From the IMG/VR virus record IMGVR_UViG_3300025543_005580, positions 47,990 to 111,989 of that record: a DNA stretch of 64,000 nt; one strand, 5' to 3'. Of this stretch, positions 27,822 to 53,160 are shown one piece after another; position 1 is the first letter of the stretch; each line of letters opens with the position of its first letter. A model generated the notes under the pieces. The model saw only the letters and a program-made list of their open reading frames with translations. It did no database searches and was not told the origin of the DNA. Origin of the DNA: a virus. A program made the position numbers and the translations under genes.

Positions 27822-27832
27822 GATTATAAATA

Positions 27833-36767: not shown

Positions 36768-36778
36768 GGAGACGCCAC
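36745..36778 (-). terminator. Rho-independent terminator
   Basis: GTGGCGTCTCC-TTT-GGAGGCGCCAC followed by TTTTTGTTT. Confidence 0.8.
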
Positions 36779-37535: not shown

Positions 37536-37838
37536 TTACTCTTTCCAAATTTTTATTATTAATTTTCCTTCTCCTTTTATAACACGATGCCATTCGTGTT
37601 TTGGAATAAATATAGGCACATTCATTGAAGTTGGTAATTGGTCTTCTAACTGTATTTGCCAATCTGTTTTACCTATAATCTCAATTGTTCTATCTTCATC
37701 ATCACGATGCCACATAAGTTCAATTGGGTCTATATTTTCACTAAATTCCCTAATTGTATATTTGTTGTTGATTTCTATATCAACATAAGGTCTACCAGAA
37801 ACCTCCGAAATTTGATTTGAGTCCGAGTAATTTTGCAT
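37536..37838 (-). CDS. Small cupin-fold protein (start uncertain; ATG at 37838 overlaps the upstream gene)
   Basis: ELMWHRDDEDR...WQIQL...IFIPKHEWHRVIKG. Confidence 0.7.
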   Translation of the reverse strand: MQNYSDSNQISEVSGRPYVDIEINNKYTIREFSENIDPIELMWHRDDEDRTIEIIGKTDWQIQLEDQLPTSMNVPIFIPKHEWHRVIKGEGKLIIKIWKE

Positions 37839-38619
37839 AACGTGGTAAGCGACAAGACCAATATCCTGCCTTTGTTTTATCCTTTTTAGTTGAACATTTA
37901 TGACGTGCCGCAAATGCATTACGTGCTTTTTTATCGTTGATTTTAGCTCTTAAACCACCTGAACCGAAACGTACTGTTTTAATTTTCTTGGTTTTAGGAT
38001 CTTTAACATAAACCTTATATGCTTTACCTCCTGAAGAGTCACGCATTGGTTTATTTAATTTTTTATTGTCGTTTTTGGCTTCTTTAAGTACAAACTTATC
38101 CACCCAAACATCGTGGGTTAATCTATATAATACTTTGTCTGGTATTCTATCTGTGTATATTTTTATTACACCTTCAGTACCACTATGTCTAGTATGATTG
38201 ATATTCATATCTTGCAATTTATCAATCATAAGGTCATAATTTTCAGGTCTAACTTTTAATAGAGCATATTTTCTATCATCTTCTCCACCTTCTTCATATG
38301 TTCCTTCGTCTAACATAGGAAAATCTAATGGTACTTTTTTACCTTCAAACATGCCATAATGACCTAAATCTGTTTCTGTTAGAACAGCTAAATCATCTTC
38401 ATGAGTAATCTCTAAAATATTACGAGAATATAAAGAACGAGCTTCAGCCCATAAGTTAAAGTAACTATCCGAACCAGCACGATATAAGTGTTCTGTTAGC
38501 GGTTTATTAGCGTCCATATGGTATTTTAAACCTTCAGACAATATAGCACGTGGAGCTAAACTTTCGTTGAGCATTAACGTTGATTTTGTATCGCAAGTAT
38601 TACATCCGCAGTCGCACAT
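37792..38619 (-). CDS. Putative internal head protein with basic Cys-containing C-terminal domain
   Basis: LNE/LSE/LDE/LKE-delimited modules; KVYVKDPKT...VRFG...ARHKC...YWSC domain. Confidence 0.65.
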   Translation of the reverse strand: MCDCGCNTCDTKSTLMLNESLAPRAILSEGLKYHMDANKPLTEHLYRAGSDSYFNLWAEARSLYSRNILEITHEDDLAVLTETDLGHYGMFEGKKVPLDFPMLDEGTYEEGGEDDRKYALLKVRPENYDLMIDKLQDMNINHTRHSGTEGVIKIYTDRIPDKVLYRLTHDVWVDKFVLKEAKNDNKKLNKPMRDSSGGKAYKVYVKDPKTKKIKTVRFGSGGLRAKINDKKARNAFAARHKCSTKKDKTKAGYWSCRLPRYAKLLGLKSNFGGFW

Positions 38620-38635
38620 ATTATTTTGTTTTATT

Positions 38636-39823
38636 TTATTTTATACCAGAATATTGGAATTTTAACATCCCCATTTGACCTAACCTACCCACATTACTAG
38701 GTGGTCTGTCAGGTTTAATACTTTTATCACTTCTGATAGTCATTTTTAATTTTAATTCTTCACCAGTAGCACCTTCAATTATTATATAAAATCCTTGAAC
38801 TGAAGAATCATCCATAACAGCTTTAAAGGATTTAATTGATCCTAAGGTAGAGGCTAGTATGTCTGATTTTTGAGATGCACTATTTCCTACTGCTTTTACA
38901 AGTATTAAAGGTATTTCTTGTTCTTTTTGAAGGTTAAAACTATTAAACACCCACCCTTTAAATTCTTCTAAACTTAATGAATTAATAGCATCAATGACTA
39001 CTTCTCTATTTACATTAAGCATCTCTCTATAAAGATCATTTGCTTCAATTTCATCTTCTAAATAAAATTGAACATATAAATCTACTACAGCTCTTTTATA
39101 TGTTTTTGTAAAATAGTTTGAGGCGTTAACACCTTCTATATTTTTTATTCCTGGTATTTTGCTATAAACTCTATCCCACATTTCTTGGTATAGGGCAGGT
39201 AAAAAATCCTCTTTACCCATAGCATTTAATTGAGTAGTAACAAAGGAATTAAGTAAAGGTTCTGATGATTTTTCAGTTCCCGCTTTTAATGACACCCCTA
39301 CAATTGATCCATCTTTAAAAAAGATAAATATGTCTCCAGCATGTCCGCTAGGTACTCCTTCTGGTTTTGCTCTATAACCCCAAACAACATAATCTATGGG
39401 ATTTTTACTATTTAAATCATAAAGCCAATTAGTTATCCCTATAGCATTTTGAAATTTTTCATCTAACATTTTGGGAGATAATACCTCTTCCATTGTATCA
39501 AAAATATTCTTTGCGGATTGTCTATCACCTGAATTAACAAAAGCTTTACTATTAAGGGAATGGTTTTTTACAAAGTCTTTAAAATCTTCTACTGAGGATG
39601 GTTTGTACCCGTCATTAAAGGCTAATGCTGGGGGTAGTTCTGTTATAGCTGCTGATAAAGTAGTATCAACTCTACCCTCATTTTCTTCTAAGCTAAATTT
39701 TTCACCTAAAAATTCACTTAATAATGTCTCCAATAACAAAACATCCTGATCATTATTCATGTCAGGATATCCTTTAGGAAATTTATATGCAATCCTATTT
39801 AAATATTTTGTAATATTATCCAA
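38636..39823 (-). CDS. Putative PD-(D/E)XK restriction-endonuclease-like protein with N-terminal leader
   Basis: HAGDIFIFF...GVSLK motif; N-terminal YKFPKGYPD...LLSE...SLEE segment. Confidence 0.5.
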   Translation of the reverse strand: MDNITKYLNRIAYKFPKGYPDMNNDQDVLLLETLLSEFLGEKFSLEENEGRVDTTLSAAITELPPALAFNDGYKPSSVEDFKDFVKNHSLNSKAFVNSGDRQSAKNIFDTMEEVLSPKMLDEKFQNAIGITNWLYDLNSKNPIDYVVWGYRAKPEGVPSGHAGDIFIFFKDGSIVGVSLKAGTEKSSEPLLNSFVTTQLNAMGKEDFLPALYQEMWDRVYSKIPGIKNIEGVNASNYFTKTYKRAVVDLYVQFYLEDEIEANDLYREMLNVNREVVIDAINSLSLEEFKGWVFNSFNLQKEQEIPLILVKAVGNSASQKSDILASTLGSIKSFKAVMDDSSVQGFYIIIEGATGEELKLKMTIRSDKSIKPDRPPSNVGRLGQMGMLKFQYSGIK

Positions 39824-39830
39824 TTTTATT

Positions 39831-40124
39831 TTATTTTACTATTACTTTAAATAAACCTGGGTGTTCTTTTTCGAAATATTTAGCTTGATTATAGCTACGA
39901 CCAAAAACAAATTCATCTAATTCATCTGCATCAGTATATGTCGTAACATCTACTTCACCATCTTCTATTTCATCTTCAGTACCAAATTCATATGGAGAAT
40001 CTGCTAATTCACCTGACTCAACGTCAAAAGCTATTTCTGGGGTTAGAAGTTCAATGTGGTAATCCACTTCTTCTTCAAATAAGCGGCCTTCAGCTAAATA
40101 TTTTTTTAAATTGAAATTGTTCAT
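39831..40124 (-). CDS. Leader-bearing putative head cargo protein (97 aa, acidic)
   Basis: N-terminus MNNFNLKKYLAEGRLFEE. Confidence 0.7.
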   Translation of the reverse strand: MNNFNLKKYLAEGRLFEEEVDYHIELLTPEIAFDVESGELADSPYEFGTEDEIEDGEVDVTTYTDADELDEFVFGRSYNQAKYFEKEHPGLFKVIVK

Positions 40125-40152
40125 TGTTTTATTTTTTTATTTTAATTTTATT

Positions 40153-40683
40153 TTAGATGATATAATACAAATCGTCTTTTAACATTTTCCTCATTTCATC
40201 TTTACTGAATTGAGGGATTGGTTTTCCATTAGCATCCATTTTAAATGCAGGAAGGAATTCTCTTCCATCTTCATCAGATAATTGTGGTATAGCATAAATT
40301 TCAATATCACCATTACTATGGATTTCTACATACCCCTCATCTCCAACAGCATACATACCAGGTTTAACCATTTGAGCTACCATATCAAAATCGTAGGGAT
40401 AATCATTTTCTTCAGCAAATTCTTTTTCGTATACATTAGAATTAAAGCTAAAATTATTATAAAATTTATTAAATTCTTCTTCGTTCCAAGGGCCTGATTG
40501 GTTATAGCCATATATATCATCATTTACTCCATCATAATATCCTGCACCACCTGAACCTACTCCCCCTAAAAGACCATCATCAAATCTAAATCCTGCTTTT
40601 ACGAGTACATCTTCAATGTCTCTTAGTTCTTCTTTTAATAAGCGACCTTCGGCTAAATATTTTTTTAAATCAAAGTTATCCAT
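40153..40683 (-). CDS. Leader-bearing putative head cargo protein (176 aa)
   Basis: N-terminus MDNFDLKKYLAEGRLLKE. Confidence 0.7.
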   Translation of the reverse strand: MDNFDLKKYLAEGRLLKEELRDIEDVLVKAGFRFDDGLLGGVGSGGAGYYDGVNDDIYGYNQSGPWNEEEFNKFYNNFSFNSNVYEKEFAEENDYPYDFDMVAQMVKPGMYAVGDEGYVEIHSNGDIEIYAIPQLSDEDGREFLPAFKMDANGKPIPQFSKDEMRKMLKDDLYYII

Positions 40684-40715
40684 TTTATTTTTATTTTATT
40701 TCCTTTTATTTTATT

Positions 40716-41273
40716 TTATTCGCTTGCTAAATCCATAGCATATTGTTCAACTTCATCGGCATCATACCCAAAATCTTCAACATCTTCTATAAATTCTGCT
40801 TTACCATTAGTAAGTATATTAGCTAATACAGTACCTGCTTCTCCTAAAGCATACTCAAAATCTTCCATTTTACTAAGATCCATTATAGCAGATTTAAAAC
40901 TTTTTTTCTGTATGGGGGTAAGAAAAATTGGTTTTGATTCTTCTTTTTGTTTTTGAATTGGTTGAGATGGTTGAGATGGTGGAGTAAGTTTTTGTAAATT
41001 TAAATCGTTATCCCAAGTTAATTCATAATCCATTAATTTTCCTGTATTAGTTTCCGCTGTAACATTAGCCTGAATTGCTTTATGCTGTATCTTGTTGTTT
41101 TTGGAAGATGTAACCCTAATAGATTGTATAGGATCTAATCCGTTTTGTTCATTATATGTTGATATTATTGGGAATGCCATTTTTTCAATTTCCTCCATAC
41201 CAACATTCACAAAGTTTTCTTCTTCAAATAAGCGACCTTCAGCTAAATATTTTTTTAAATCAAAGTTGTTCAT
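40716..41273 (-). CDS. Leader-bearing putative head cargo protein (185 aa)
   Basis: N-terminus MNNFDLKKYLAEGRLFEE. Confidence 0.7.
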   Translation of the reverse strand: MNNFDLKKYLAEGRLFEEENFVNVGMEEIEKMAFPIISTYNEQNGLDPIQSIRVTSSKNNKIQHKAIQANVTAETNTGKLMDYELTWDNDLNLQKLTPPSQPSQPIQKQKEESKPIFLTPIQKKSFKSAIMDLSKMEDFEYALGEAGTVLANILTNGKAEFIEDVEDFGYDADEVEQYAMDLASE

Positions 41274-41292
41274 TTTATTTTATTATTTTATT

Positions 41293-41814
41293 TTATACTT
41301 CTATATCTGTTGTATCGTCAACTTCTACATCTATTTCTTCAGTATCACTACCTTCTCCTGGTGATGAGGTTGTTGATGCGGTATCTGATGCTTCTAAAGC
41401 TGCTTCATCTCCCATTTCAGCATCGCTGTTACCATAAGATAACATACGAGCTATAGCTTCAATAGCTCTTTCTTCCTCATTTAAATTAAGTAAATAATAT
41501 TTTTTACCTTCAATTTTAGCAATCCAACTACGAACTGCCCAAATTAAATAAAATACTTCATCATTTGCTAGTACAATTCTAAATGTAGTAGGTTTTGGAG
41601 CTACCCATTGGATATCTTTAACGAATGTTTCAAATTGATCCGTTAGCATATCAACTAATATTCTCTTTAGTTCTGGGAATTTTAAGAGCATTGGAAATTT
41701 TTCAATTTCTAAATCTATAGTGGAATTACCCCCATCCAAATCAACGAATGATCCTGGTTTGTATACTTGGCTTACAAGTCCTTTGATTTTATCTCTTAAT
41801 TCTGATTTAGTCAT
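41293..41814 (-). CDS. Hypothetical protein (MTKSELRDKIK leader, acidic tail)
   Basis: Clean ORF in the head-cargo block. Confidence 0.65.
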   Translation of the reverse strand: MTKSELRDKIKGLVSQVYKPGSFVDLDGGNSTIDLEIEKFPMLLKFPELKRILVDMLTDQFETFVKDIQWVAPKPTTFRIVLANDEVFYLIWAVRSWIAKIEGKKYYLLNLNEEERAIEAIARMLSYGNSDAEMGDEAALEASDTASTTSSPGEGSDTEEIDVEVDDTTDIEV

Positions 41815-43157
41815 TATTTAGACTTTAATTTTTCTGCTAATCTTTTAGCAATTTTTTCGGCTTTACTTAAATCGCCTTTATTCATTGCTTTTCTAGCTTG
41901 TTGGAGTTGATAAGTTTTAGATATATCTCCTTTATGTTTATTCAATGCCTTTTGAATAGCAGAAGCTAACATATCAGCTTTACCTGGGGTTTCTTCGTTT
42001 ATTTCAATATCATCAACAACATCAACTTCCATTTCAGGGGTGATATCATCCATTCTATCTACTACAGCATCAATTGCTGGTTCTTTTAGTTCAAAATCTA
42101 AGTAATGCTTAGCACCTACAATAGCTGATTTAGCATTTGAGATTTTTGATTGCCACCAATGTGGTAAATCAACTTCTCCTTTACCTTCAAAATCATCCAT
42201 CATTTGGTATAATTCCATAGCATATTTTCCAATACGATATAGATCACCTTTTAACATATGAGGTTCGTTATCTTGATGACCAAGATCCATATCTTCTTGC
42301 ATCATGTCCTCATCTTCATCTTCTTCCTCACCGTATTCTTCAATTTCGTCTACGATTGAAGCAATTGTAGTATCGTATCTGTTTGAGCTAGAACCTAAAT
42401 CGAAAGCACCATATGCGTCTCCTTTACTAAGGTAAGATGGGAAGTTTTGTGCGATAATATCTCTGGCTTGATCTCCTAATACTTGGAGTTCATCTAAGAT
42501 ATTTCTTAGCTCCATAAGAGCTTCTACTTTATCTTCATTTAATGCATTTTCACTTAAAAATTTAGCTTTTGCTGCTTTAAAATCACCTTTGTATAGTTGT
42601 TTAACTATTTTACGTCCTAAAGTTTCTAATTGATCTAAATCTAAAGAATGAGGTTTACCAAATCCTTTTAAATATGCCGCTCCAATGTCTCCATACTCTG
42701 CAGGATCAATTACATCTTCAACACCTTCTTTTAGATCACCTAATTCCTTAGCTGCTCTAACAAGATCATTTCTTGCTTCATCTTCACCAACACCTCTGTA
42801 TTTGGCTATCTTTTTAATAGCCATTTTAGCAATGCGTTTTTCTTCAGATGAAGAACTTTCATCTAGGTTTTTTTCAATTGCCGCGCCACGTTTTTCTTCG
42901 TAATCTGAAAGTTTACCATCTTTATTTAGATCGGCTGCTTTAGGATTTTTAAGAGAATCTTTAATCATCTCTCTAACTTTATCTTGATTCATATTTTCAG
43001 TTTTTTTCTTAGCCATATTAGTTGCGCGACCATACATTACTGCTTCCGCGTCCTTACCATAACGTTTAACGAAGGACCTCTTATTTGTTTTGAGGTCCAT
43101 TATCGCATCTTCTCGATTTTCGAGTTCTTGTTTAGTAAGTTCGCGTTCGTTAAGCAT
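41814..43157 (-). CDS. Modular putative internal head protein (likely start MLNERE at 43157)
   Basis: Modules bounded by LDE/LKE/LSE/LNE/INE. The ORF-track 5' extension overlaps the Hc1-like gene. Confidence 0.65.
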   Translation of the reverse strand: MLNERELTKQELENREDAIMDLKTNKRSFVKRYGKDAEAVMYGRATNMAKKKTENMNQDKVREMIKDSLKNPKAADLNKDGKLSDYEEKRGAAIEKNLDESSSSEEKRIAKMAIKKIAKYRGVGEDEARNDLVRAAKELGDLKEGVEDVIDPAEYGDIGAAYLKGFGKPHSLDLDQLETLGRKIVKQLYKGDFKAAKAKFLSENALNEDKVEALMELRNILDELQVLGDQARDIIAQNFPSYLSKGDAYGAFDLGSSSNRYDTTIASIVDEIEEYGEEEDEDEDMMQEDMDLGHQDNEPHMLKGDLYRIGKYAMELYQMMDDFEGKGEVDLPHWWQSKISNAKSAIVGAKHYLDFELKEPAIDAVVDRMDDITPEMEVDVVDDIEINEETPGKADMLASAIQKALNKHKGDISKTYQLQQARKAMNKGDLSKAEKIAKRLAEKLKSK

Positions 43158-43167
43158 GTGTTTTTTT

Positions 43168-43323
43168 TTACTTGTGTCCTCTTTTGAAGTCAGCGGATAA
43201 GTTTTTGATTTTGTTAGCGGCAGATCTACATCTTCCTTTAGCTGCAGCTGATGTTTTGTCAATTTCTGCTTCAATCAATAATACTTGTTCTTTGATTCCT
43301 TCTAATAATTCTTTAGTTTCCAT
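43168..43323 (-). CDS. Histone H1-like (Hc1-type) small basic protein, 51 aa; not in the ORF track
   Basis: METKELLEGIKEQVLLIEAEIDKTSAAAKGRCRSAANKIKNLSADFKRGHK with an A-rich start; resembles the KAAGTRARKAS pattern of Bacteroidota Hc1-like proteins. Confidence 0.6.
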   Translation of the reverse strand: METKELLEGIKEQVLLIEAEIDKTSAAAKGRCRSAANKIKNLSADFKRGHK

Positions 43324-43370
43324 AATTTTTATTGTTTTATAAATTTAATTGTTTGTTTATTTTTATTTTA

Positions 43371-44687: not shown

Positions 44688-44714
44688 TCCTAATATATTT
44701 ATGTATAAATATGG

Positions 44715-45008
44715 TTATTTTTTAGACTGATACGTCCCTTTCTTGTATTTTGCAGATTTTGTGTTTTTAACAAATTGTTTACCTTTTTTATCACCACGGA
44801 CTTTTTTAGCTACTGTAGCTTTTCTTTCTGCCTTTGTTAAGGATTGAGCTTTTTTTCTAGGCAAACATCTAGTAGTTGCTTTACCTTTTTTCATAGTACC
44901 ACAAGGGCCAGTAATGTTACCAGCCGTATCAATTCGAACCCAATCCTCTTTTTTAAACCAATCGCGAAGGGATTCTGAAATTATTTCTTGTAGTCTTTCG
45001 TTTGTCAT
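44715..45008 (-). CDS. Small basic putative head protein (97 aa)
   Basis: IISE followed by SLRDWFKKEDWV...PCG...CLP...ERK basic domain. Confidence 0.65.
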   Translation of the reverse strand: MTNERLQEIISESLRDWFKKEDWVRIDTAGNITGPCGTMKKGKATTRCLPRKKAQSLTKAERKATVAKKVRGDKKGKQFVKNTKSAKYKKGTYQSKK

Positions 45009-45589: not shown

Positions 45590-45619
45590 TTTATTTTTTC
45601 TTTAAGGGGTTTAGTTGAA

Positions 45620-46015
45620 TTAACTATTTTCCCAGTCTTTTTTTCTTCTATCTACTTCTTGGTAAAAAGCTTCTTCTCCTTTTTCTTTCCAACTTAAATA
45701 ATCAGCATATTTTTCAGGAAAACTAACTATCCATTTATTAATAGCATCATAAGCCTTTTTAACAGATTCAGGTGAAGGATTTATTCTAGGAACAGAGACA
45801 TCAAATTGGCCATCCCACCATCCTGTCATATCATCATTCCAATCGATTCTGAATACATCTGGAAATCGCATAGTTCTAAGTTTTGCTCCTGTTTTGATTT
45901 CTAAATCTTTAGCCATTTGTTCAAAGTCATTAAACATTTCTTTTCTTGAAGGAGTAGTTTCTTGTTCAAATAATCTACCTTCAGCTATATATTTTTTTAA
46001 ATCGAATGTATCCAT
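45620..46015 (-). CDS. Leader-bearing putative head cargo protein (131 aa; likely start 46015)
   Basis: MDTFDLKKYIAEGRLFE begins right after the upstream stop codon. Confidence 0.7.
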   Translation of the reverse strand: MDTFDLKKYIAEGRLFEQETTPSRKEMFNDFEQMAKDLEIKTGAKLRTMRFPDVFRIDWNDDMTGWWDGQFDVSVPRINPSPESVKKAYDAINKWIVSFPEKYADYLSWKEKGEEAFYQEVDRRKKDWENS

Positions 46016-46016
46016 T

Positions 46017-47801
46017 TTATTTTTTCTTTTTTCTTCCAGACATTTGTCCTTTACATACTTTAACTGCACGACCTGATAAATAAGCAGATGATTTTTCTCC
46101 TGCTGCTTTACGTCTTTTGATATATGCCTTGCCTTTAGGACATAATTCTTCTTCAATTACACCTTCACCTAATTTAATAGTTTCGGCTAATTCTTGAGCC
46201 ACTGATTTTTTCTTTTCATCACTACTATGACCAAAGGTTTTATGAACTAGTTTATCTAATTCTTTGTGAAATTCATTTTCCTCGTCTTCTGTAGCTTCAT
46301 TTACACCATCAAAATCTCTTTGTTTTAAAGCAGCCATAATAGCGTATACAGCATCTTGTTCGCTATAATCGTATCGTTTAGCCATTGCCTTAATAAAACG
46401 ACTTACTGCTTTAGATACTTCAGGATTAAGTGATTCTTTTATTTCACCTAACATGTTTGGATCCATATTAATGAAATCATCTGATACAGCAAATACTTGG
46501 ACAACTCCATTTTCTTTATCTACTATGTCGATGTCTTCTAAATCATATTCTGCTTTCAAATCTCTAGCTACATCACCAGCTAATCGCATAGCTTCAGCAG
46601 CACTTTCTCTTCGGATTTGACCAGTCATTGTTTCTTTACCTAATGCAATTGATGAACCACCTGGTCCTAAATCATATTCGATATTAACATATAGGAAGTT
46701 AGGGAATTTTTTATCTTTAACATAGCTAGGCATAGATACTCTTGCTCTAGAAGCTTCAGCTATTGATTTACCTCGTTGTTTAGCTTTTCTAACTAATGAA
46801 TTCCAATTAGATAAATCATATTCATCCCATGGTTCAACCTCCATTTTATTGAATGTTTTTTCTTGACCTTCTACTGGTTTGCTATTTAGGTAATGTGTTT
46901 CGTTTTGAGTTAATTCAAAGAATCTATCTACTTGATCTTGGGTAGGCATTTTGCTTTCACCTTCAGCTATTGCTTGATCATAGGTCATTTCTTTTCTACC
47001 TGATAGTTTAGCTATTACTTTATCAATACGATTTAATTTACTACCATATTCATCAGCAATTGGCCCACCTTCTGGTTCAGCTTCTTGCTCCATATCACGC
47101 ATTAATTGTGCTCTTTCTTTTTTGAGGAATGCTATTTTTTTAGCATTATCAAAGAATTTATCGTTACCATCATCACCAGCATTAGCAGCTCTCATTTTAG
47201 CTAATTTATCTTTAGCAGCTCTCATTTTCATAAGAACTGGGTCATTGATGTCCATTTCTTCTAAATTGCCTGCTTGAAGTTCGTACCCCCAACGCTTAAG
47301 TTTAGCTTCTAATTCAGCTTTATCTTTAGCTTCAAAATCGAATGAATCGTTTACACCATAGTAACCCATACCTCTTTTATAGATTTTAGTTTCACCAGCA
47401 TCACCTTTAGGATCATCATAGATAGCAATTTCACCATCGGTAAATGTACCTTCGTTTACTGATTCTTCATAGTAATCTTTATGACCACCGTTTACTCTAA
47501 AAATATCGCTATATTCTCTTCTTGAATAATTTGATGAATCACCTGAAATAGTGATACCTGAATTTCCACCCCAATTCAAACCTGCTGAATCTAGTCTTTG
47601 ACCAATGTCATCAACAATTTCATCTGGGGAATCTTGGCCTGTAATAATATCAATTTCATCCCATTTTGGAACTAACATTATAGTGAATGGGTAGGTTGAT
47701 TTGCTTAGTATTTTAACTACTTTATCAAAATCTTCTTTTGTTACCTTATTTTCTTCTAAAGGTTTAGAAAAGAATTCTTGTATTTTTTTAATATCTTCCA
47801 T
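46017..47801 (-). CDS. Modular polyprotein-like putative head protein (594 aa)
   Basis: About 8 short segments separated by LEE/VNE/IAE/IKE sites; basic ELCPKGKAY...VCKG C-terminal module. Confidence 0.7.
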   Translation of the reverse strand: MEDIKKIQEFFSKPLEENKVTKEDFDKVVKILSKSTYPFTIMLVPKWDEIDIITGQDSPDEIVDDIGQRLDSAGLNWGGNSGITISGDSSNYSRREYSDIFRVNGGHKDYYEESVNEGTFTDGEIAIYDDPKGDAGETKIYKRGMGYYGVNDSFDFEAKDKAELEAKLKRWGYELQAGNLEEMDINDPVLMKMRAAKDKLAKMRAANAGDDGNDKFFDNAKKIAFLKKERAQLMRDMEQEAEPEGGPIADEYGSKLNRIDKVIAKLSGRKEMTYDQAIAEGESKMPTQDQVDRFFELTQNETHYLNSKPVEGQEKTFNKMEVEPWDEYDLSNWNSLVRKAKQRGKSIAEASRARVSMPSYVKDKKFPNFLYVNIEYDLGPGGSSIALGKETMTGQIRRESAAEAMRLAGDVARDLKAEYDLEDIDIVDKENGVVQVFAVSDDFINMDPNMLGEIKESLNPEVSKAVSRFIKAMAKRYDYSEQDAVYAIMAALKQRDFDGVNEATEDEENEFHKELDKLVHKTFGHSSDEKKKSVAQELAETIKLGEGVIEEELCPKGKAYIKRRKAAGEKSSAYLSGRAVKVCKGQMSGRKKKK

Positions 47802-48238
47802 TATTTAAATGCGTTTATTGCTCTTTCGTCTTTAAAATGATCTTGGACTGCTTTTAATGCTACCTCTCTATCTTCAGGGGATAAAGCATTGAATCTAGCT
47901 AATATTCTATCGTTATTGTCTTTTGCTCTTCTATACTGACCACCATCATCTATGTACTCATAGTAAGCATCGTATGATTTAAAGTATTTTAAAAAATCAT
48001 CTAATGATGATAAATCTTCGTTTTCATTAATAGATTCATTCATGCCTAATTCAGCATGTAACACTTCCATAAAAGGACCAAAATTATGAGAGCCATACTC
48101 GTCTTTAAGAATAGCGGCTACACCAATTGCAAAATCTTTGTATGATAAATTTTCATCAACAGAAGCAATAGCATTATCTATCGCTTTTGCTACTTCATTT
48201 TCTACAAGATCAGAATAATATTCTTTAAGGTTTTTCAT
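47801..48238 (-). CDS. Putative internal head protein (145 aa)
   Basis: MKNLKEYYSDLVE start and internal MNESINE junction. Confidence 0.6.
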   Translation of the reverse strand: MKNLKEYYSDLVENEVAKAIDNAIASVDENLSYKDFAIGVAAILKDEYGSHNFGPFMEVLHAELGMNESINENEDLSSLDDFLKYFKSYDAYYEYIDDGGQYRRAKDNNDRILARFNALSPEDREVALKAVQDHFKDERAINAFK

Positions 48239-48449
48239 TGTTATTTTTTTTAGTTCTTCTACGTTTTTTTGGTTTAGGTATTTCTTTTACTACCTTTTCT
48301 AATGATGATTCACCACTCATTTTAATTTCTACTTGTGGTTCTTCTGTGGTTACTCTAGTAACTTGTACTGGGTTAGTATCTCGGATTACTTTTTGGTTGC
48401 CTTTAGGGGCATGAAAAGTTCTACTATTTTCAAATTTACCTAATTCCAT
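48225..48449 (-). CDS. Hypothetical protein with basic tail (74 aa)
   Basis: Tightly packed ORF. Confidence 0.5.
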   Translation of the reverse strand: MELGKFENSRTFHAPKGNQKVIRDTNPVQVTRVTTEEPQVEIKMSGESSLEKVVKEIPKPKKRRRTKKNNNEKP

Positions 48450-49066
48450 TATTTTTTAGTATTTAGGTATTCGTCAAGTAATGTACCGATAACACCTGCT
48501 TTCTGTCGTATAAATATCCACTCTTCCTTAGATAATTTATGTTGTTGTTGAAAATCTACACAAAGAACGCCAATAAAACGATCTTTTAAATCGTCTAAAG
48601 CAAGTAAATAATAAGATTGGGCACCATAAGGTTCAGCAACGGCTCCTAACCCATAAGTTTCACCATTAGCATCCGATACGGCTATTTCACCATTTTTATA
48701 AAGTTCAGACATTGCTTTTGGAAATAATGATACTGGGATGTTTTGGAAGTTATGTTGTGCTGCTAGAATATTTGGTCCTACTTTTTCATAGAACATAGAA
48801 AATTTCTGGATTGATTTACCTGTTGGATAAAAATGTCCACCATTATGAAATTGGGTAACCCATACTCGGTCGCAATTTAATTCATCCATAATAACATCAA
48901 GTTGTTCATCAACTAAGTTATTTAGTTCTATTGCTTCATGTACAGGATTTTTTTCCTCTTTTTTCTTTCCAAAATGATTTTTTGCCCATTCAACAGCAAT
49001 TGGCCCAAATACAGCTGTTATTAAAGCAACGATTATTGTCGAAAGCATCATTATTGTAGTTTCCAT
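48449..49066 (-). CDS. Single-TM protein with GAF-like domain (holin T-like candidate)
   Basis: N-terminal hydrophobic helix; CDRVWVTQFHNGG...FIGVLCVDF pattern. Confidence 0.55.
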   Translation of the reverse strand: METTIMMLSTIIVALITAVFGPIAVEWAKNHFGKKKEEKNPVHEAIELNNLVDEQLDVIMDELNCDRVWVTQFHNGGHFYPTGKSIQKFSMFYEKVGPNILAAQHNFQNIPVSLFPKAMSELYKNGEIAVSDANGETYGLGAVAEPYGAQSYYLLALDDLKDRFIGVLCVDFQQQHKLSKEEWIFIRQKAGVIGTLLDEYLNTKK

Positions 49067-49067
49067 C

Positions 49068-49640
49068 TTATTTTTTAAGTGATTGTAAAAATTTAATTGT
49101 TTCTTCTTTACTTTCTAGCATTTTTATTTTATTAGAACCAACCCAGCTTTCTATATCACCAGCTTCTGTTATAAAATCTTCGTTAGATTGATTTAGCATT
49201 TCGTCAAACCAAACCTCAAATTCTTTTGTTAAATTATCAACGTTATCGTTTATAAATACGTTATTATATTCTTCCCATAAACCCTTTAATTTTAAATCAG
49301 CTTCAAAGCTAACTTGACATGTTAAACATCTTTTAAATTGTAAATAAAAACGTTTATCTGCTTGCTTTTTCATTAAATTATTACATGAAGGACAAAATAA
49401 AGGCATATGTATTTCCTTTTTAGCATTATCCAGTTTAGTGATGTTTTGTTTAATACCGTTTTTAATAGTCCAAGTACGACCATCAGATTCCCAAACATCA
49501 CCTTCTTCATGAAATTCTTCTACTTTAGTATAACCAACACCTTGTACATTACGAGCCCCATGCTTGCCTGTCATTAGGTTACGAAGACGTTGTACGTCTT
49601 TTTCTTTAAATTCTTTCTTTAAAACTGATTCTTTACTCAT
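49068..49640 (-). CDS. Hypothetical zinc-finger protein (likely start MSKES at 49640)
   Basis: CPSC...CLTC; EGDVWE..GRTWTIKNG. Confidence 0.65.
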   Translation of the reverse strand: MSKESVLKKEFKEKDVQRLRNLMTGKHGARNVQGVGYTKVEEFHEEGDVWESDGRTWTIKNGIKQNITKLDNAKKEIHMPLFCPSCNNLMKKQADKRFYLQFKRCLTCQVSFEADLKLKGLWEEYNNVFINDNVDNLTKEFEVWFDEMLNQSNEDFITEAGDIESWVGSNKIKMLESKEETIKFLQSLKK

Positions 49641-51988
49641 AAACCTAATTTTTTTAATTCTTTTATTGTTTGTTCTGTAGATATAAATAATATACCTATT
49701 CCTCCTGCTGCCTTCCATTGGTCAATATTTGAAGGACGATCATCGATTAATATATTATTACCATCAGCATAGTTTTTCTTATTATAAGAATTAGCTAATA
49801 TTAATTTAGTTCCTGGGAGGTTATTTCTAACCCATAAACGTTTACCTAAACGAGAGGAATTTGAACGGGATGGTGAAGATAATAACATTGGGTTATTTGG
49901 TTTAATATACTCCCATAATTGTTTACCATTAGGCATCCAAGGCATACCAACCCAAAATCCAACACCATTTTCATTGTCAATTAAATTCCAAAATGCTTCT
50001 TTGCCATTTTTTTCTTCATATTCACGAGGAGAAATACCACCAGATGCTTTTTCAAATTGCTTATCAAAGTCAACTAATACACCATCCATATCACAATAGA
50101 TAGTATATTTTTGATCATTTACTTCATTCATAACTTTACTTTTATATTCGAATATGGGTAAAGATAATGCCTTAGCTCGGTTTCTCCAAATTTTTAATAT
50201 GTTTTCTCTTTCCTCAGCATTAATAGGTTGAGTATCAAGATAATCATTGATTACATCAATATATGGTTTTTTCGATTTTTTAGCTTTAAAGTATAAACCT
50301 TGAAGCATAGCATCTATTTCTTTGGGTAATCTAAAGTAATCTGCTTTAGGTAGTAAATCCAAATTAATTAAATCTCTAATTGTTTGATCATCATCCATTT
50401 GCTTACTAGGTCTTACTAGTTTTGGATCATCACTATCTACTCCACCTTTAACATTTTCTCCATCTTGAGTTAAATGCTCAAGCTCGTGTCTTACAACATC
50501 TTTAATATCAAATGATACTTTTTGCCAGTCTGGGTTTTTAGGTATTTTAAATTTAACTGATAGTAAGGGGGTTATTTCATTTCCTTTAGTATCAAATCCA
50601 GCATTTGCTCCTCCATCCACATTATACTCATCATCTGTAATTTCTACTACGCCTTCAAAATCAAAATAAAATTCTTCAGATGGAATATCATGTTCATCAT
50701 CTGGGTGGTCTACTCTAAATTCAAAGTCGCCTTTTTTATCTCCTCTATCGTGAATATCTTTAAATGCTTCAAATGCAATTTTAGATAATTGGTTAGTTAG
50801 TGTATCATAACGACCTTCGTTTAATGATTCTTCTAAACCTTGGGCTAATTCACGAGCGTATTGATTTAAACCAAATGGGTCTTTATTTTTTTTCTCTTCA
50901 AGTGGGGTATTATTATGCTCACATTTATGGCATGTAAATAAATCATCCCCACCATCTGCTATTTTCCAACTCCAGCCACAATTGTCACATTCGATTTTAT
51001 CGCCTATAATTGCTTCATTTAAGCTATCAGTCCAATTTCTAAATGTCATTGTACCTTTCAAATTAGCTTCAGCTTCAATATCATTTAAGTTATCGTCTTC
51101 CTGTGTATTAGTTGTAGTAATATCACTCAATCTACCCTCTAAATTTTGAATGTGATGTACCATTTCATGTGAGAATGAACGTACTATATCTTTAGGATGT
51201 CGTCCCTCAGTATATAGCACGATTGTACTTGTGTTTGGGTTATAATACGCTGTTTTACCGAAAAAATCACGTGCGTTTTCGCTATCACCGTTAATAAATT
51301 CAACTGTGGGTAAGGGATCAATATTATATCCCTTATCTCTCATATAATTAGTTAATTCGATTATTTTATTTTTATAATCTATATCTTTAGAATATGAAGC
51401 ATTTTCGTTTAATGACTCCTTAACTACATCTTGTATGTAACCAAATATTTCTAATTTTTCATCATCAGTTAAATTTGATGGTAAAAATTTGTAGAATGAT
51501 TCTGGGGATTGCTTTGCTGCTGATCTTGCTTTAGTACCACTAACATTGGCATCTGGAGTTTGGATTATTTTAACTTTAACATTTGGATATTTATCTTCTA
51601 CACCAGTTGTTCTTAAAGCAACATCTGTTAGATCATCTTCATTTCCTTGCCTAGCACCTATAATAAAGTAAACTACTTCTTCAGGATGGTTTTTTCCATA
51701 TCTTAAAATATCACCTATTGGTGCTTTTGATGGTTGTATTTCTACTTTTGATGGAAGATAATTTTTATATATATCCCATATCAACAAAGATTCTTCTTGA
51801 GTAATACCATTACGTTCTCCACTACCCACATAAATAATAAATTTATCTATTTCAGGGAAGTCAGATAGTGCTTTTTGTACTACTTCAAGATGTCCTTTTG
51901 TTGGTGGTTTGAAACCGCCACCATAAACAGCGGTTACCAAATTATCACCAACTAGTTCGGATATTAACGACTTAGTTAGTGAATTCAT
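49637..51988 (-). CDS. Multidomain protein: cytidylyltransferase-like NTase, HExxH domain, Zn ribbon, second HExxH domain, HAD 5'(3')-nucleotidase-like
   Basis: GGGFKPPTKGH...SGTKAR; SHEMVH; CDNC..CHKC; RHELEH..Q; IYCDMDGVLVDF...ILIDDR. Confidence 0.8.
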   Translation of the reverse strand: MNSLTKSLISELVGDNLVTAVYGGGFKPPTKGHLEVVQKALSDFPEIDKFIIYVGSGERNGITQEESLLIWDIYKNYLPSKVEIQPSKAPIGDILRYGKNHPEEVVYFIIGARQGNEDDLTDVALRTTGVEDKYPNVKVKIIQTPDANVSGTKARSAAKQSPESFYKFLPSNLTDDEKLEIFGYIQDVVKESLNENASYSKDIDYKNKIIELTNYMRDKGYNIDPLPTVEFINGDSENARDFFGKTAYYNPNTSTIVLYTEGRHPKDIVRSFSHEMVHHIQNLEGRLSDITTTNTQEDDNLNDIEAEANLKGTMTFRNWTDSLNEAIIGDKIECDNCGWSWKIADGGDDLFTCHKCEHNNTPLEEKKNKDPFGLNQYARELAQGLEESLNEGRYDTLTNQLSKIAFEAFKDIHDRGDKKGDFEFRVDHPDDEHDIPSEEFYFDFEGVVEITDDEYNVDGGANAGFDTKGNEITPLLSVKFKIPKNPDWQKVSFDIKDVVRHELEHLTQDGENVKGGVDSDDPKLVRPSKQMDDDQTIRDLINLDLLPKADYFRLPKEIDAMLQGLYFKAKKSKKPYIDVINDYLDTQPINAEERENILKIWRNRAKALSLPIFEYKSKVMNEVNDQKYTIYCDMDGVLVDFDKQFEKASGGISPREYEEKNGKEAFWNLIDNENGVGFWVGMPWMPNGKQLWEYIKPNNPMLLSSPSRSNSSRLGKRLWVRNNLPGTKLILANSYNKKNYADGNNILIDDRPSNIDQWKAAGGIGILFISTEQTIKELKKLGL

Positions 51989-52366
51989 TTATTGTTTTAG
52001 TTTTTGGATTTTTTCCTTAGCTATACGTTTCTTTTCTTCGATGTCCTTTTTAGCACCTCGAAAAGACTCCATAGCATCTTCCATTTCTTTGAGACTATCT
52101 TGATATGCATTTAGTGCTTCTGATCCTGCTCTCTTTGCATCTAATTTTTGTTTATAGATACCTAAAATATTTTTAACATCTAATCCACCTTTGATTTGAA
52201 GAGCGAATGAAGGAAGGTCTAATTCGTAAACCACATCTTCCATTTCGGAATCTTTGGTTGGTTTTTCTACGATAAAAAATTTGCCGATCTCATCTACCAT
52301 TGAAGTCGCTACTTCAGTAACTACTTCATTTGTTTCTATTTCGTTTAATATATCTACTAATTTCAT
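51989..52366 (-). CDS. Putative internal head protein (MKLVDILNE leader)
   Basis: N-terminus resembles a capsid-targeting sequence; coiled-coil tail. Confidence 0.6.
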   Translation of the reverse strand: MKLVDILNEIETNEVVTEVATSMVDEIGKFFIVEKPTKDSEMEDVVYELDLPSFALQIKGGLDVKNILGIYKQKLDAKRAGSEALNAYQDSLKEMEDAMESFRGAKKDIEEKKRIAKEKIQKLKQ

Positions 52367-53160
52367 TTTTTAAGGAATTGGTTTAATCTCATTTGTGCCT
52401 CTTCTTTAGACATAGTATATTCAATTACATCATATACAAAGTCATCACTTAACATAGATTGAATTTCTTCTTTATCTTGAGCATTTCGCTCATCTGATTT
52501 TTTCTGTTGAGCTGGAGTTTTTGGTTTAGTATCTGTAGGTGCGAATGGTTTAAGATATTTATCTATAATCTTATCTATATCTTGCATTCTATCATCTAAT
52601 GTATTAGCTACAGCAACAAAATTATTACCAAATAAATCAGCATATTTAGGTAGGTTTTCTGTTACACCTTTCCAAGTACGCATTACAATAGCAGGTGCTA
52701 AGCTTCTATCTTCACCACCTGATTTTTGGTATCTATCTTGATTTTGTCTTAACGAACGTTCTAGATCAGTATAAACGTAAAGCATAAATACATCGTATCC
52801 TGCTTCCTCCAATTGTTGTTTTAATTCAGCTGTTTTTTTAAATGAAGCGGCTGTACCATCTAAAACAAAGGATTGTTTACCATCTATTACACCTTGTAGC
52901 TCACCCTTAAATTCTTTGTTAGCTGCAGCCATTGCTTTAGCTTGCTCACTTCTTTCCTCAGGAGTAGCATTTTTTAAATCTAAAGATACATTGGCTTGTT
53001 TAAGTTTACTAATAAAGGTATTGTCTATATTAAGGATTTTTAAATCACCTATATCTAATTTTGATAAAATAGACCCTTTACCAGCACCCGGGGCACCAGC
53101 AAGAATTACTGCTTTAGGTTTAGATATAGCCTCCTTTAAAAGTTCTGTCAACAAAATCAT
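52363..53160 (-). CDS. P-loop kinase, zeta-toxin/AAA_33-like, with LLKE leader
   Basis: AVILAGAPGAGKG, LNIDN, FVLDGT, GYDVFMLYV..DLERSL..N..R. Confidence 0.75.
   Translation of the reverse strand: MILLTELLKEAISKPKAVILAGAPGAGKGSILSKLDIGDLKILNIDNTFISKLKQANVSLDLKNATPEERSEQAKAMAAANKEFKGELQGVIDGKQSFVLDGTAASFKKTAELKQQLEEAGYDVFMLYVYTDLERSLRQNQDRYQKSGGEDRSLAPAIVMRTWKGVTENLPKYADLFGNNFVAVANTLDDRMQDIDKIIDKYLKPFAPTDTKPKTPAQQKKSDERNAQDKEEIQSMLSDDFVYDVIEYTMSKEEAQMRLNQFLKK

Follow-up and report, generated by a model that had tools for sequence, protein, structure and literature searches.

A single conserved leader with predicted head-protease sites precedes six mutually unrelated genes of an uncultured T4-like phage whose hosts are aquatic Flavobacteria, which makes it most likely that the phage packs the six proteins into its head, trims them and delivers them along with its DNA, in the manner of the T4 internal proteins. 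The complete explanation, in which the leader docks the protein, a gp21-type cut removes the leader, the cargo is delivered and a set of shorter leaders probably behaves alike, is one that we consider probable. The window referred to below is the whole stretch of 64,000 nucleotides that was analyzed, and its minus strand holds all of the genes.

Identification of a conserved two-part tag

Six ORFs located between 39831 and 46015, together with a seventh gene that lies elsewhere in the genome (outside the window) among early or metabolic genes, begin with the tag MDNFDLKKYLAE. This is an instance of an 18-residue N-terminal consensus, M(D/N)NF(D/N)LKKYLAEG(K/R)L(x)xE. A sequence-only reading of this DNA had described N-terminal segments ending in (L/I/V)xE on most ORFs of the region, and the KYLAE that it quoted is one part of this longer tag. 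When the ORFs of the phage were searched with an HMM of the tag, the seven scored 30-37 bits and all remaining ORFs scored 3.4 bits or less. The tagged genes of the block are the following:

39831..40124, minus strand: tagged cargo of 97 aa, very acidic (pI 4.1), starting MNNFNLKKYLAEGRLFEEE; 33.8 bits with the tag HMM
40153..40683, minus strand: tagged cargo of 176 aa, pI 4.2; tag HMM
40716..41273, minus strand: tagged cargo of 185 aa, pI 4.5; tag HMM
43371..44687, minus strand: tagged gene of 438 aa, net charge -56, coiled-coil middle
45008..45589, minus strand: tagged gene of 193 aa, an acidic stretch followed by two hydrophobic membrane-type segments
45620..46015, minus strand: tagged cargo of 131 aa; tag HMM; its true start is an internal ATG within a longer TTG ORF, 45620-46156

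The tag ranges in length from 17 to 24 residues and has two LxE sites, LAE at residues 10-12 and a second LxE at residues 15-18. Both sites are present in 128 of 151 distinct tags, with the first only in 15, the second only in 8 and neither in none, the background rate being 23%. Information content drops sharply directly after the second (L/I/M)xE, which is where conservation ends. The cargo that follows has no informative family in Pfam or PHROGs searches of all block proteins, no Pfam domain was found in any of the six tagged proteins, and none was found in the ten largest tagged proteins from other loci.

The tag is present in at least 119 viral contigs, nearly always two residues past the start Met, and a profile search of metagenomes recovered 1,534 tag-headed protein clusters at 50% identity. 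Among 185,579 prokaryote species genomes there are just 3 true copies, each in metagenome bins. The tag is phage-specific. A literature search on the motif and capsid targeting in Flavobacterium phages found no paper.

The T4-like head module

The head module keeps the T4 order, with a T4-type terminase, a Portal_T4 protein, three core genes, a Peptidase_S77 protease, the scaffold and Gp23, so that the run of portal, three small genes, protease, scaffold and Gp23 compares with T4 genes 20-67-68-21-22-23. Its relevant features are:

23602..25260, minus strand: major capsid protein, Gp23 family
25287..26480, minus strand: scaffold-type protein, acidic and repeat-rich, with 24 [LIVM]xE sites
26609..27208, minus strand: prohead protease, S77 family (T4 gp21); PF03420, 7e-30
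27210..29651, minus strand: three genes in the portal-protease interval, at the position of T4 genes 67/68

The S77 profile match reaches 104.4 bits against a curated cut-off of 27. The protease can be aligned to T4 gp21 (5JBL), with His74 and Ser127 opposite the two catalytic positions occupied by Ala in the 5JBL chain, and is intact as judged from its sequence. Its N-terminus has LIE-7 and that of T4 gp21 has LIE-9 (PMC9026906). All three genes of the portal-protease interval have a conserved N-terminal LxE, and the 203-aa gene among them (MTLQQQYNLIKEGKG) always adjoins the protease gene; no sequence similarity to gp67 or gp68 was detected in the three small genes. The likely start of the scaffold is the ATG at 26396, and its C-terminal end, ...ARWQKLAGIK, is kept at the extreme C-terminus in eight scaffold orthologues. 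In the Gp23-family capsid protein [LIVM]xE occurs five times in the first 60 residues and five times in the other 490, and MLE51 and VTE60 flank the position aligned with the T4 gp23 maturation site.

An S77 protease is encoded by seven of seven complete tag-bearing phage genomes examined, among them that of the cultured Flavobacterium phage immuto, a co-occurrence that common descent confounds. The genome of immuto (vB_FspM_immuto, MW353175) has three tagged genes, at 1803, ~103.8 kb and ~118.6 kb, and its S77 gene is at 124.7 kb. In one complete genome the scaffold and protease genes flank a tagged gene. No virion proteome was found in the papers that cite phage immuto, nor for any related phage.

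Leader exchange and reuse of the second half of the tag

The 176-aa cargo has 164 homologues, and its orthologues carry at least four leader types or an internal half-tag, each joined at ...E|ELRDVED; the canonical tag, the internal half-tag and the other leaders always end ...xE right before ELRDVED. The leaders on orthologues of the 193-aa protein vary similarly, being A-type, B-type or of another kind. An alternative leader, (R)MQKLAGLITE, is a copy of the sequence at the scaffold C-terminus (ARWQKLAGIK in this phage). Local alignment of the tag with the phage's own head proteins did not exceed shuffles; the link to the scaffold is visible solely via the alternative leader, not via alignment of the canonical tag. 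Additionally, the second half of the tag, LAEGKLLKE, is found as a polyprotein linker between domains. In the form LAEG(K/R)LLKE it separates unrelated domains at 83 internal sites in the 150 best matches, and the linker was confirmed in DNA-readable ORFs of two loci (L101 and L109).

These observations bear on two accounts that do not involve the capsid. If the shared 5' end acted at the nucleic-acid level, whether as an enhancer of translation initiation or as a recombination cassette for shuffling genes, the peptide would be incidental; the AT-rich DNA of the tag, its location at the start codon and the arrangement of tagged genes in arrays, comparable to hyperplastic regions, would fit such an element. 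However, residues are fixed while synonymous codons vary at every position of the tag, which indicates that selection acts on the peptide, the upstream DNA is not conserved, and the half-tag is conserved deep within ORFs, leaving this account scarcely credible. The second account, that a RiPP-like or radical-SAM modifying enzyme recognizes the tag as its leader or that the tag directs proteins to a place in the cell such as a membrane or replication compartment, accommodates the seventh tagged gene with its metabolic neighbours but is very unlikely. Genes recurring in the neighbourhood of tags belong to the head, the baseplate and the block, and none encodes a modifying enzyme; the sole radical-SAM-like gene seen in the genome is QueE-type and belongs to a 7-deazaguanine cluster (named from sequence only). 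The tag is furthermore charged and is not a signal peptide, and the internal half-tags, the LxE at every boundary and the swap for a scaffold-tail mimic indicate the head protease and the scaffold instead.

Proposed mechanism of loading, trimming and delivery

We propose that the first half of the tag, MDNFDLKKY, would dock the protein on the scaffolding core during prohead assembly, and that the second half, LAE|G(K/R)L(x)xE|, would serve as a double cutting site for the gp21-type serine protease of the phage. This protease would strip the leader after shell closure, and the mature cargo would then stay in the head beside the DNA and exit with it at infection. If the analogy to T4 IPI* holds, the delivered cargo would meet host defences ahead of phage gene expression. 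Core binding, cleavage, retention in the virion, ejection and an anti-defence role are steps that we only infer. Counting against this reading, the seventh tagged gene has early or metabolic neighbours, and the late motif precedes just one tagged gene.

A different fate for the same proteins would be that of prohead core or scaffold accessories, which are degraded and expelled before packaging like T4 gp22, gp67 and gp68, so that nothing is injected. The cargo is mostly acidic (median pI 4.6), as is scaffold, and the alternative leader copies the scaffold tail. Moreover, in six other phages the head-core protein encoded beside the protease has a C-terminal extension homologous to residues ~155-278 of the 438-aa protein, giving the two proteins a coiled-coil domain in common, and the acidic, coiled-coil 438-aa protein may belong to the core or scaffold and be degraded instead of being delivered. 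As a description of the tagged proteins in general, however, this fate is improbable. The AlphaFold model of the 176-aa protein (mean pLDDT 87.8) predicts a flexible tag at residues 1-20 (pLDDT ~60) and a confident globular fold at residues 21-176, with most of the cargo domain above 90 and a loop at residues 41-50 at ~66; this cargo thus appears compact and confidently folded, and has no internal LxE-rich stretch. No match to the model was found by Foldseek against PDB (best E 0.075) or by VIA-align against 48,161 chains (best Z 4.0). Additionally, 141 cargo sequences fall into 96 clusters, a diversity typical of conflict proteins and not of structural parts, the tag is also found on orthologues of a kinase, and T4 internal proteins that bear a capsid-targeting sequence (CTS) remain in the head and are ejected (PMC3012670). 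Head loading followed by delivery is the reading that we retain for the tagged cargo.

Short leaders on the kinase, its neighbour and a multi-domain chain

Three further genes at the upstream end of the block have leaders of a shorter kind, MxLxxLLxE, or a related arrangement:

52363..53160, minus strand: Zeta-toxin/AAA_33-type P-loop kinase of 265 aa with the 10-residue leader MILLTELLKE
51989..52366, minus strand: 125-aa protein with the short leader MKLVDILNE, of the kinase-leader type
49637..51988, minus strand: multi-domain chain of 783 aa

The kinase matches PF06414 at 1.3e-17 (64 bits against a cut-off of 22) and has the Walker A sequence GAPGAGKGS at residues 22-30, so that the kinase named by the sequence-only reading is confirmed by Pfam as Zeta_toxin/AAA_33. 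In six of 120 close orthologues the full tag replaces the short leader and meets the protein at the same LLKE. With 80-96% identity across many phages, the kinase looks more like a core enzyme than arms-race cargo. The leader is conserved in 66 relatives of the 125-aa protein, where a variable linker separates it from the core DEIGKFF.

The 783-aa chain consists of a 20-aa leader, a cytidylyltransferase-like NTase, an HExxH region, a CxxC-CxxC ribbon, a second HExxH region and a HAD 5'-3' deoxyribonucleotidase; the NTase and nucleotidase had been called previously and are both borne out. The predicted zincins correspond to two HExxH motifs (HEMVH at 274 and HELEH at 501), but the best Pfam matches of these regions, Peptidase_M91 (E 0.005) and DUF6782 (E 0.01), are under their cut-offs. 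Domain junctions are marked by SLNE195, SLNE325, SLNE391 and VMNE622, which coincide with shuffling breakpoints in relatives (~193, 325 and 613-625). About a quarter of 80 NTase orthologue loci appear leaderless, starting directly at the first strand. The same logic of docking and cutting probably applies to the kinase, the 125-aa neighbour and the 783-aa chain, and the chain would be cut at its SLNE/VMNE junctions.

The remainder of the block

The other untagged ORFs of the block, and a nuclease beside it, are as follows:

37792..38619, minus strand: 275-aa basic protein with a Cys-rich N-terminus, then MLNE and ILSE before a conserved core, LKYH
38636..39823, minus strand: 395-aa protein with a TTG start; phrog_2496
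41293..43274, minus strand: 173-aa and 447/486-aa ORFs with no assigned function
44715..45008, minus strand: 97-aa very basic protein, pI 10.4, leader MTNERLQEIISE|SLRDWFK
46017..48238, minus strand: 594-aa and 145-aa ORFs with no assigned function
48225..49640, minus strand: 74-aa basic ORF, 205-aa ORF with an N-terminal hydrophobic segment and 190-aa Zn-ribbon ORF
53185-53970: PD-(D/E)XK nuclease, just beyond the end of the block

The first ~47 residues of the 395-aa protein (...YKFPKGYPDMNNDQDVLLLE...) form a separate conserved N-terminal module that is present at 35 or more viral loci before some ten different continuations, and this module is a candidate third leader type. For the 97-aa basic protein the junction xE|SLRDWFK is kept where its domain is embedded in larger proteins. 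The case for packaging appears weak to moderate for the 594-aa protein, residues 226-292 of which match a canonically tagged 699-aa protein, and for the 145-aa protein, the relatives of which begin with tag-like variants. It appears weak for the 173-aa and 447/486-aa proteins, one domain of the latter also being part of a 1108-aa protein whose tag is a variant (L047), and likewise weak for the 275-aa protein, the relatives of which have variable N-extensions. A leader search of the three ORFs in 48225-49640 found none, and these have no sign of packaging. The nuclease that had been included in the payload does exist, but outside of the block.

Motif statistics define how far the block resembles the head module. 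[LI]xE within residues 4-25 is present in 9 of 12 untagged block ORFs versus 26 of 82 elsewhere. The segments EIISE, DILNE, ELLKE, SLISE, KPLEE, DLVE and MLNE, which had been read as processing signals, are indeed at the N-termini where they were placed. For some eight block ORFs outside the tagged and short-leader groups, a generic LxE is the only evidence. N-terminal LxE conserved among orthologues was set aside as a marker, as it is conserved in clear non-virion families too; DNA polymerase and other such families also reach 100%, with the exonuclease motif of the polymerase serving as a non-virion control for a conserved generic LxE. Overall [LIV]xE density, which had been suggested as a check against non-virion genes, was likewise rejected since it is accounted for by Glu-rich composition (Glu 9.7% in the block versus 5.6% elsewhere) and is not above the composition expectation. 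A stricter amphipathic-leader pattern matches 3 of 13 block ORFs and 2 of 82 others (Fisher p = 0.017), the prohead protease being one of these two. The block and the head proteins alone are enriched, 4-5 times, in (L/M)NE, which has a frequency per 1000 aa of 2.4 in the block (0.59 expected), 2.3 in head-module proteins and 0.5 in the rest of the genome.

Transcription signals were also located. The late-type motif ATATTTATA (gene sense) occurs in 12 copies versus 3.7 expected, in a single orientation and mostly before structural genes, and the T4 late promoter TATAAATA is unused in gene sense, the recurring motif being its reverse. The signals within and next to the block are:

36754..36778, minus strand: strong intrinsic terminator, 11-bp stem with 8 GC pairs and a T run, ending the transcription unit downstream of the block
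44704..44712, minus strand: late-type motif ATATTTATA before the 438-aa tagged gene
48509-48517, minus strand: second block copy of the late-type motif

The statement that most ORFs of the block follow the late motif is thus wrong in that form, there being only these two copies, and the 438-aa gene is the sole block gene with the motif directly upstream. A sigma-70 promoter scan returned fewer sites than in shuffles.

The broadest claim, that the whole 16-kb block of ~20 ORFs including its enzymes is one packaged, processed and injected payload, gains from the kinase orthologues with a swapped-in tag, from the short leader common to two adjacent unrelated genes, from the SLNE/VMNE junctions together with block-wide (L/M)NE enrichment, from the third N-terminal module, and from a position flanked by baseplate and head modules with one terminator at the end. 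Against this, the three ORFs of 48225-49640 are leaderless, about five others offer generic LxE as their sole evidence, [LIV]xE density follows composition, and about a quarter of the NTase loci seem to lack a leader. The canonical tag was moreover absent among 66-80 relatives each of the NTase, 275-aa, 97-aa and 125-aa proteins, the four families tested for tag-swapped orthologues. We regard the claim for the entire block as unlikely; what stands of it, judged from sequence, is the set of six tagged ORFs and, with moderate support for a connection to the head system, the kinase, the 125-aa neighbour and the 783-aa chain.

Implications

If the tag works as proposed, the injected proteins of a large group of abundant environmental phages would be readable from sequence, and ~1,500 unexplored clusters would be candidate anti-defence or host-takeover proteins. 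The two-part tag also provides testable rules for loading and release, with a docking half, a cutting half that is also a linker, and exchange for a copy of the scaffold tail. For engineering of Flavobacterium phages it would be a natural packaging tag, as the T4 CTS is for T4. A more tentative extension, about which we have considerable doubt, is that the tag, the short leaders and the scaffold-tail mimic together constitute a sequence-readable "injectome" of far more than 1000 families in T4-like phages of aquatic Bacteroidota. It would include enzymes (the Zeta-like kinase and the NTase-zincin-nucleotidase chain cut at (L/M)NE), loading would operate through mimicry of scaffold-shell contacts, and the head protease would also be a polyprotein processor.

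Comparison with known systems

Iyer, Burroughs, Anand, de Souza and Aravind reportedly described in 2017 polyvalent proteins of phages and conjugative elements that were proposed to be delivered with DNA and that are module-shuffled. The 783-aa chain resembles these in linking an NTase and a nucleotidase to two HExxH regions and a Zn ribbon, modules that its relatives shuffle. It differs in that its junctions carry (L/M)NE of the prohead-protease type, which suggests that the head protease, rather than an embedded peptidase, makes the cuts, and in that its HExxH regions are below Pfam thresholds. The scaffold C-terminal tail of other phages, such as P22, holds the scaffold to the coat shell, and (R)MQKLAGLITE is a copy of the extreme C-terminal tail of the scaffold in this phage group. 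The copy is, however, at the N-terminus of the cargo with an I-T-E site after it, and contact of this scaffold tail with the capsid protein is putative.

In the giant phages phiKZ, 201phi2-1 and SPN3US, head and ejection propeptides are cut after (S/A/G)-x-E by a gp21 homologue (PMC5694885, PMC7411985). As is proposed for the present phage, a T4-like protease acts after Glu on many of the head proteins; propeptides have several cleavage sites, and there are paralogues with conserved N-termini (SPN3US gp53/gp54). In contrast, their propeptides are mostly >100 residues with the motif A/S-x-E, there is no single portable tag, and no common leader spans hundreds of families.

The closest comparison is with T4 itself, where the CTS of IPI, IPII, IPIII and Alt is removed by the prohead protease gp21 (Mullaney and Black 1996; PMC3012670, PMC9026906, PMC5694885), residues 4 and 7 being responsible for targeting and residues 8 and 10 for processing (PMC9026906). 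In both phages a short N-terminal leader is common to otherwise unrelated, fast-evolving proteins, has an aromatic residue at position 4 and ends in aromatic-(I/L)-A-E (FIAE in T4 and YLAE here). The N-terminus of T4 IPII and IPIII, MKTYQEFIAE, has only this pattern in common with the tag, at 10-12 residues too short for statistics, and is otherwise not alignable. Both phages also have a gp21-family S77 protease, a T4-ordered head module and variable, clustered leader-bearing genes. There are clear differences as well. The leader of the present phage is 17-24 residues, bipartite and has two LxE, versus a 10-residue leader with one site in IPII and IPIII; acidic proteins make up most of its cargo; the cleavage half recurs as a linker within polyproteins; and the leader is exchangeable with one that copies the scaffold C-terminus. 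Its hosts belong to the Flavobacteria, as opposed to enterobacteria, and the phage system is known here from sequence alone. For the six tagged ORFs the analogy to T4 that had been drawn earlier is upheld by the gp20/gp21/gp23 module, the S77 protease, the CTS-like build with its terminal LxE and the scaffold-tail leader swap. By this analogy, the tag system appears to be a new variation on the T4 capsid-targeting system.

A conserved N-terminal tag shared by seven proteins

Six ORFs within the minus-strand block at 37792-53160 share a conserved 18-residue N-terminal leader, the tag, whose consensus start is M(D/N)(N/T)F(D/N)(L/Y)(K/R)KY(L/I)AEG(K/R)L(x)xE.

39831-40124, minus strand, tagged ORF (shared N-terminus)
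40153-40683, minus strand, tagged ORF (shared N-terminus), 176 aa
40716-41273, minus strand, tagged ORF (shared N-terminus)
43371-44687, minus strand, tagged ORF (shared N-terminus), 438 aa
45008-45589, minus strand, tagged ORF (shared N-terminus), 193 aa
45620-46015, minus strand, tagged ORF (shared N-terminus)

A seventh tagged gene (contig 9044-9607; 187 aa, MNFDLKKYLAEGKLHEEE) is located 39 kb before the window start with thymidylate-synthase and hydrolase-type genes as neighbours, and the tag is present in eight of eight of its relatives. These seven ORFs score 30-37 bits with a tag HMM, and the next best ORF of the genome scores 3.4 bits.

The tag occurs in two main forms, form A as found in the window, MDNFDLKKYLAEG(K/R)L(x)xE, and form B, M(D/E)NF(D/N)LKK(F/Y)LVENK(L/V)TxNS(K/R)xLxE, and in both forms information content falls to background directly past the second (L/I/M)xE. 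Both LxE sites are present in 128 of 151 distinct tags; a further 15 retain just the first and 8 just the second, and no tag lacks both; the background rate of a site in the second window is 23%. Diverged tags without the first site (YLANN, YLKNN, FISKN) retain a terminal LLQE, LLNE or LLEE. DNA 5' of the start codons of the tagged genes is not conserved, and the tag codons vary at synonymous sites. Since several synonymous codons are used at every tag position among 134 distinct tag DNAs from other phages, selection acts on the tag peptide, and that the tag is a nucleic-acid element is an explanation to which we give hardly any weight.

A sequence-only reading had pointed to KYLAE and a series of similar motifs at the starts of the block ORFs. 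KYLAE proved to be the centre of the far stronger tag signal and the other quoted motifs are present, but as a class these are weak evidence. An [LI]xE within residues 4-25 is found in 9 of 12 untagged block ORFs versus 26 of 82 ORFs elsewhere, and a stricter amphipathic-leader pattern in 3 of 13 block ORFs versus 2 of 82 elsewhere (p = 0.017), one of the latter two being the prohead protease. Overall [LIV]xE density in the Glu-rich block equals that expected from composition. A better discriminator is (L/M)NE, which reaches 2.4 sites per 1000 aa in the block, where 0.59 would be expected, and 2.3 in the proteins of the head module, compared with 0.5 in the remaining genome. Among the controls, neither an N-terminal LxE nor a tagged orthologue occurs for the portal, terminase and baseplate proteins or for the neighbours of 309 and 148 aa. 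However, N-terminal LxE is unreliable as a sole criterion because it is also conserved in several non-virion families.

A two-part build

The second half of the tag, (K)(Y)LAEG(K/R)LLKE, also occurs alone, in-chain between unrelated domains of many database proteins. There are 83 such internal half-tag sites among the best 150 profile matches, with conservation limited to the nine residues. A 264-aa ORF of another viral locus (L101), confirmed in DNA, carries in succession a tag, an internal full tag whose Met is replaced by Ile, and a half-tag, and a 343-aa ORF (L109), also confirmed in DNA, has a similar arrangement. This recurrence argues that the tag is bipartite, with a part restricted to protein starts and a portable part that, judged from sequence, would behave like a processing linker.

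The head module and its links with the tag

The window represents 64 kb at the right-hand end of a viral contig (112 kb) with nearly all genes on the minus strand, and contains a T4-type head module with genes in T4 order.

31594-33165, large terminase
29683-31566, Portal_T4
portal-to-protease interval, three small genes
26609-27208, Peptidase_S77 prohead protease (PF03420, 7e-30)
25287-26480, acidic scaffold-type protein
23602-25260, Gp23-family capsid protein

The prohead protease can be aligned to T4 gp21 (PDB 5JBL), and the two catalytic positions that are Ala in the 5JBL chain are His74 and Ser127 here. It has LIE-7 at its N-terminus, where T4 gp21 has LIE-9 (PMC9026906). Of the [LIVM]xE sites of the capsid protein, five lie in residues 1-60 and five in the other 490, and MLE51 and VTE60 are on either side of the position aligned with the T4 gp23 maturation site. 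At the DNA level the only cultured-phage relatives are Flavobacterium 'immuto' phages.

An orthologue of one of the three small genes, a 203-aa gene of head-core type, adjoins the protease gene in 13 loci, and 6 of these 13 orthologues are extended at the C-terminus by a region sharing 36-66% identity with residues ~155-278 of the 438-aa tagged protein. The same domain is therefore positioned either as a fusion with a protein of the head core or downstream of the tag. Gene order in one complete genome is core protein, protease, tagged 98-aa gene and scaffold. That the tagged proteins are themselves core proteins, degraded rather than injected, we consider rather unlikely.

Orthologues of the 176-aa cargo (the part behind the tag) begin with the canonical tag, with an internal half-tag in a polyprotein, or with the unrelated leaders MKELYRFRQFLTEGIIKE, MAKFNYVKWVTESKYGKLLKE, MKKLLTERFQELAGLKPLYTLQE or MNKELLRMQKLAGLITESELKE, and every one of these N-termini stops in xE immediately ahead of a common ELRDVED. 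The leader family MNKELLRMQKLAGLITESELKE is a copy of the scaffold's extreme C-terminus. This tail reads ...ARWQKLAGIK here (window 25287-25320) and is invariant among eight orthologues of the scaffold, as (R)(W/M/F)QKLAGI(I)K; the cargo leaders, ...(R)MQKLAGLITE, are the scaffold-tail peptide with an added I-T-E site (loci for tail or tail-copying leader: L005, L022, L056, L064, L091, L099, L105). In related phages, small unrelated proteins begin with the same peptide, extended by TE, as their leader. The tail part of the scaffold holds the scaffold to the shell in other phages. By this analogy, a leader that is interchangeable with the canonical tag and imitates the shell-holding part of the scaffold is the strongest argument that the tag would serve as a capsid address. 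The six tagged genes very probably constitute a T4-style set of capsid-targeted, protease-trimmed proteins.

Upstream motifs

The block ORFs had also been said to follow a late motif. This motif, ATATTTATA in gene sense, is real, with 12 copies in the window versus 3.7 expected, in a single orientation and mostly just 5' of structural genes, but the block has only two of them, one at 48509 and one at 44704, where the 438-aa tagged gene follows. A distinct motif, CCATATATGTATTA, is common to 26481-26550 (upstream of the scaffold gene) and 37487-37556 (upstream of ORF 36839-37486) and may represent a second promoter class. An A-rich repeat, ATAAAATAAAAT(A), which may be a translation-initiation region or promoter element, occurs in gene sense only, immediately 5' of four block genes in a row (starts 38619, 39823, 40683, 41273).

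38643-38655, gene sense, A-rich repeat
39834-39849, gene sense, A-rich repeat
40717-40730, gene sense, A-rich repeat
41283-41307, gene sense, A-rich repeat

A strong terminator at 36778-36754 closes the transcription unit of the block. Outside the block, a 120-aa ORF (33730-34092) has the late motif upstream and the N-terminus MKKSEFKEYIKNEIVEILSE; another complete phage has a 72-aa ORF of similar start, MKKSEFIEVLRELIQQELNE, in its head-core cluster (L124 363-581), and the 120-aa ORF may be a further small head-internal protein.

Cargo and distribution of the tag

Among the loci there are 141 distinct proteins with the tag, which form 96 clusters (78 of them singletons) and have a median length of 137 aa and a median mature pI of 4.6; 78% are acidic versus 53% of other ORFs. 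Neither the six tagged window proteins nor the ten largest ones from elsewhere contain a Pfam domain. Two segments of the 193-aa protein are hydrophobic. For the 176-aa protein there are 164 homologues, and its cargo domain has invariant Gly/Asp/Tyr positions. AlphaFold models this protein confidently (mean pLDDT 87.8), the tag residues 1-20 being flexible (~60); a search of solved structures gave no match to the model (best VIA Z 4.0).

A degenerate DNA pattern covering ten residues of the tag matches at least 119 stretches in IMG/VR contigs; among the matches listed, nearly all of 149 occurrences begin two residues past the initiator Met. Prokaryote genomes (one per species, 185,579 species) gave nine matches to this pattern; three of them are genuine tags, each from a metagenome bin, and the others are due to chance. 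A 30-column tag profile retrieved 1,534 representative proteins (of clusters at 50% identity) at E <= 0.001 among 1.84 billion. Five tag-bearing genomes that are complete or nearly so (156-173 kb) all encode S77, with 1-6 tags each, often arrayed, and the cultured phage vB_FspM_immuto has an S77 protease and three tags. No partner enzyme recurs near tags, and a leader for a modifying enzyme, or some other cellular address, is an improbable role for the tag. Our literature search found no paper on the motif. Novel aspects are the tag family and how large it is, its bipartite architecture, in which one part is reused as a linker in polyproteins, and the swapping of the tag with a mimic of the scaffold tail.

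The rest of the block

The kinase at 52363-53160 (Zeta_toxin, 1.3e-17) has 120 close orthologues, of which 114 begin MISLxxLL(N/K)E and six begin with a full tag (e.g. MDDFDFKKYLAEGRLLKE) that joins at the same LLKE ahead of the P-loop strand. Its 125-aa neighbour has a short leader of the same type; in 66 relatives MKLLDLLNE is kept, and a variable linker separates it from the core. The 783-aa protein (49637-51988) has a 20-residue leader, apparently absent in about a quarter of 80 orthologue loci. This enzyme chain contains (E/D)SLNE three times (SLNE195, SLNE325, SLNE391) and VMNE622, all at domain junctions; its relatives break and rejoin modules at the same points (~193, 325 and 613-625), and the nucleotidase profile begins at residue 625. 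Judged from sequence, the chain resembles a polyprotein that the head protease would cut. ORF 38636-39823 begins with a conserved module of ~47 residues (...KGYPDMNNDQDVLLLE...; IAYKFPKGYPDMNNDQDVLLLE) that is found in at least 35 viral loci (L450-L484) with about ten different continuations and may be a third kind of leader. A 97-aa basic protein retains xE|SLRDWFK both as N-terminal and as internal junction. Just outside the block, a PD-(D/E)XK nuclease (53185-53970) has an N-terminal (I/L)LE(I/V)S(E/D)D conserved in 15 relatives, which may be either a leader or a piece of the fold.

There are only hints of cargo status for 37792-38619, 41293-43274 and 46017-48238, and no evidence for payload membership was found for the ORFs of 48225-49640. 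The original proposal of an injected, protease-processed block probably holds for the six tagged genes, and that the whole 16 kb is payload seems doubtful.

Comparison with the T4 capsid targeting sequence

In the T4 capsid targeting sequence (CTS), targeting is governed by residues 4 and 7 and processing by residues 8 and 10 (PMC9026906), a split into targeting and processing residues that is mirrored by the bipartite tag. The N-terminus of T4 IPII and IPIII is MKTYQEFIAE. Its likeness to the tag is a pattern too short for statistics: position 4 is aromatic in both, and both end in aromatic-(I/L)-A-E.
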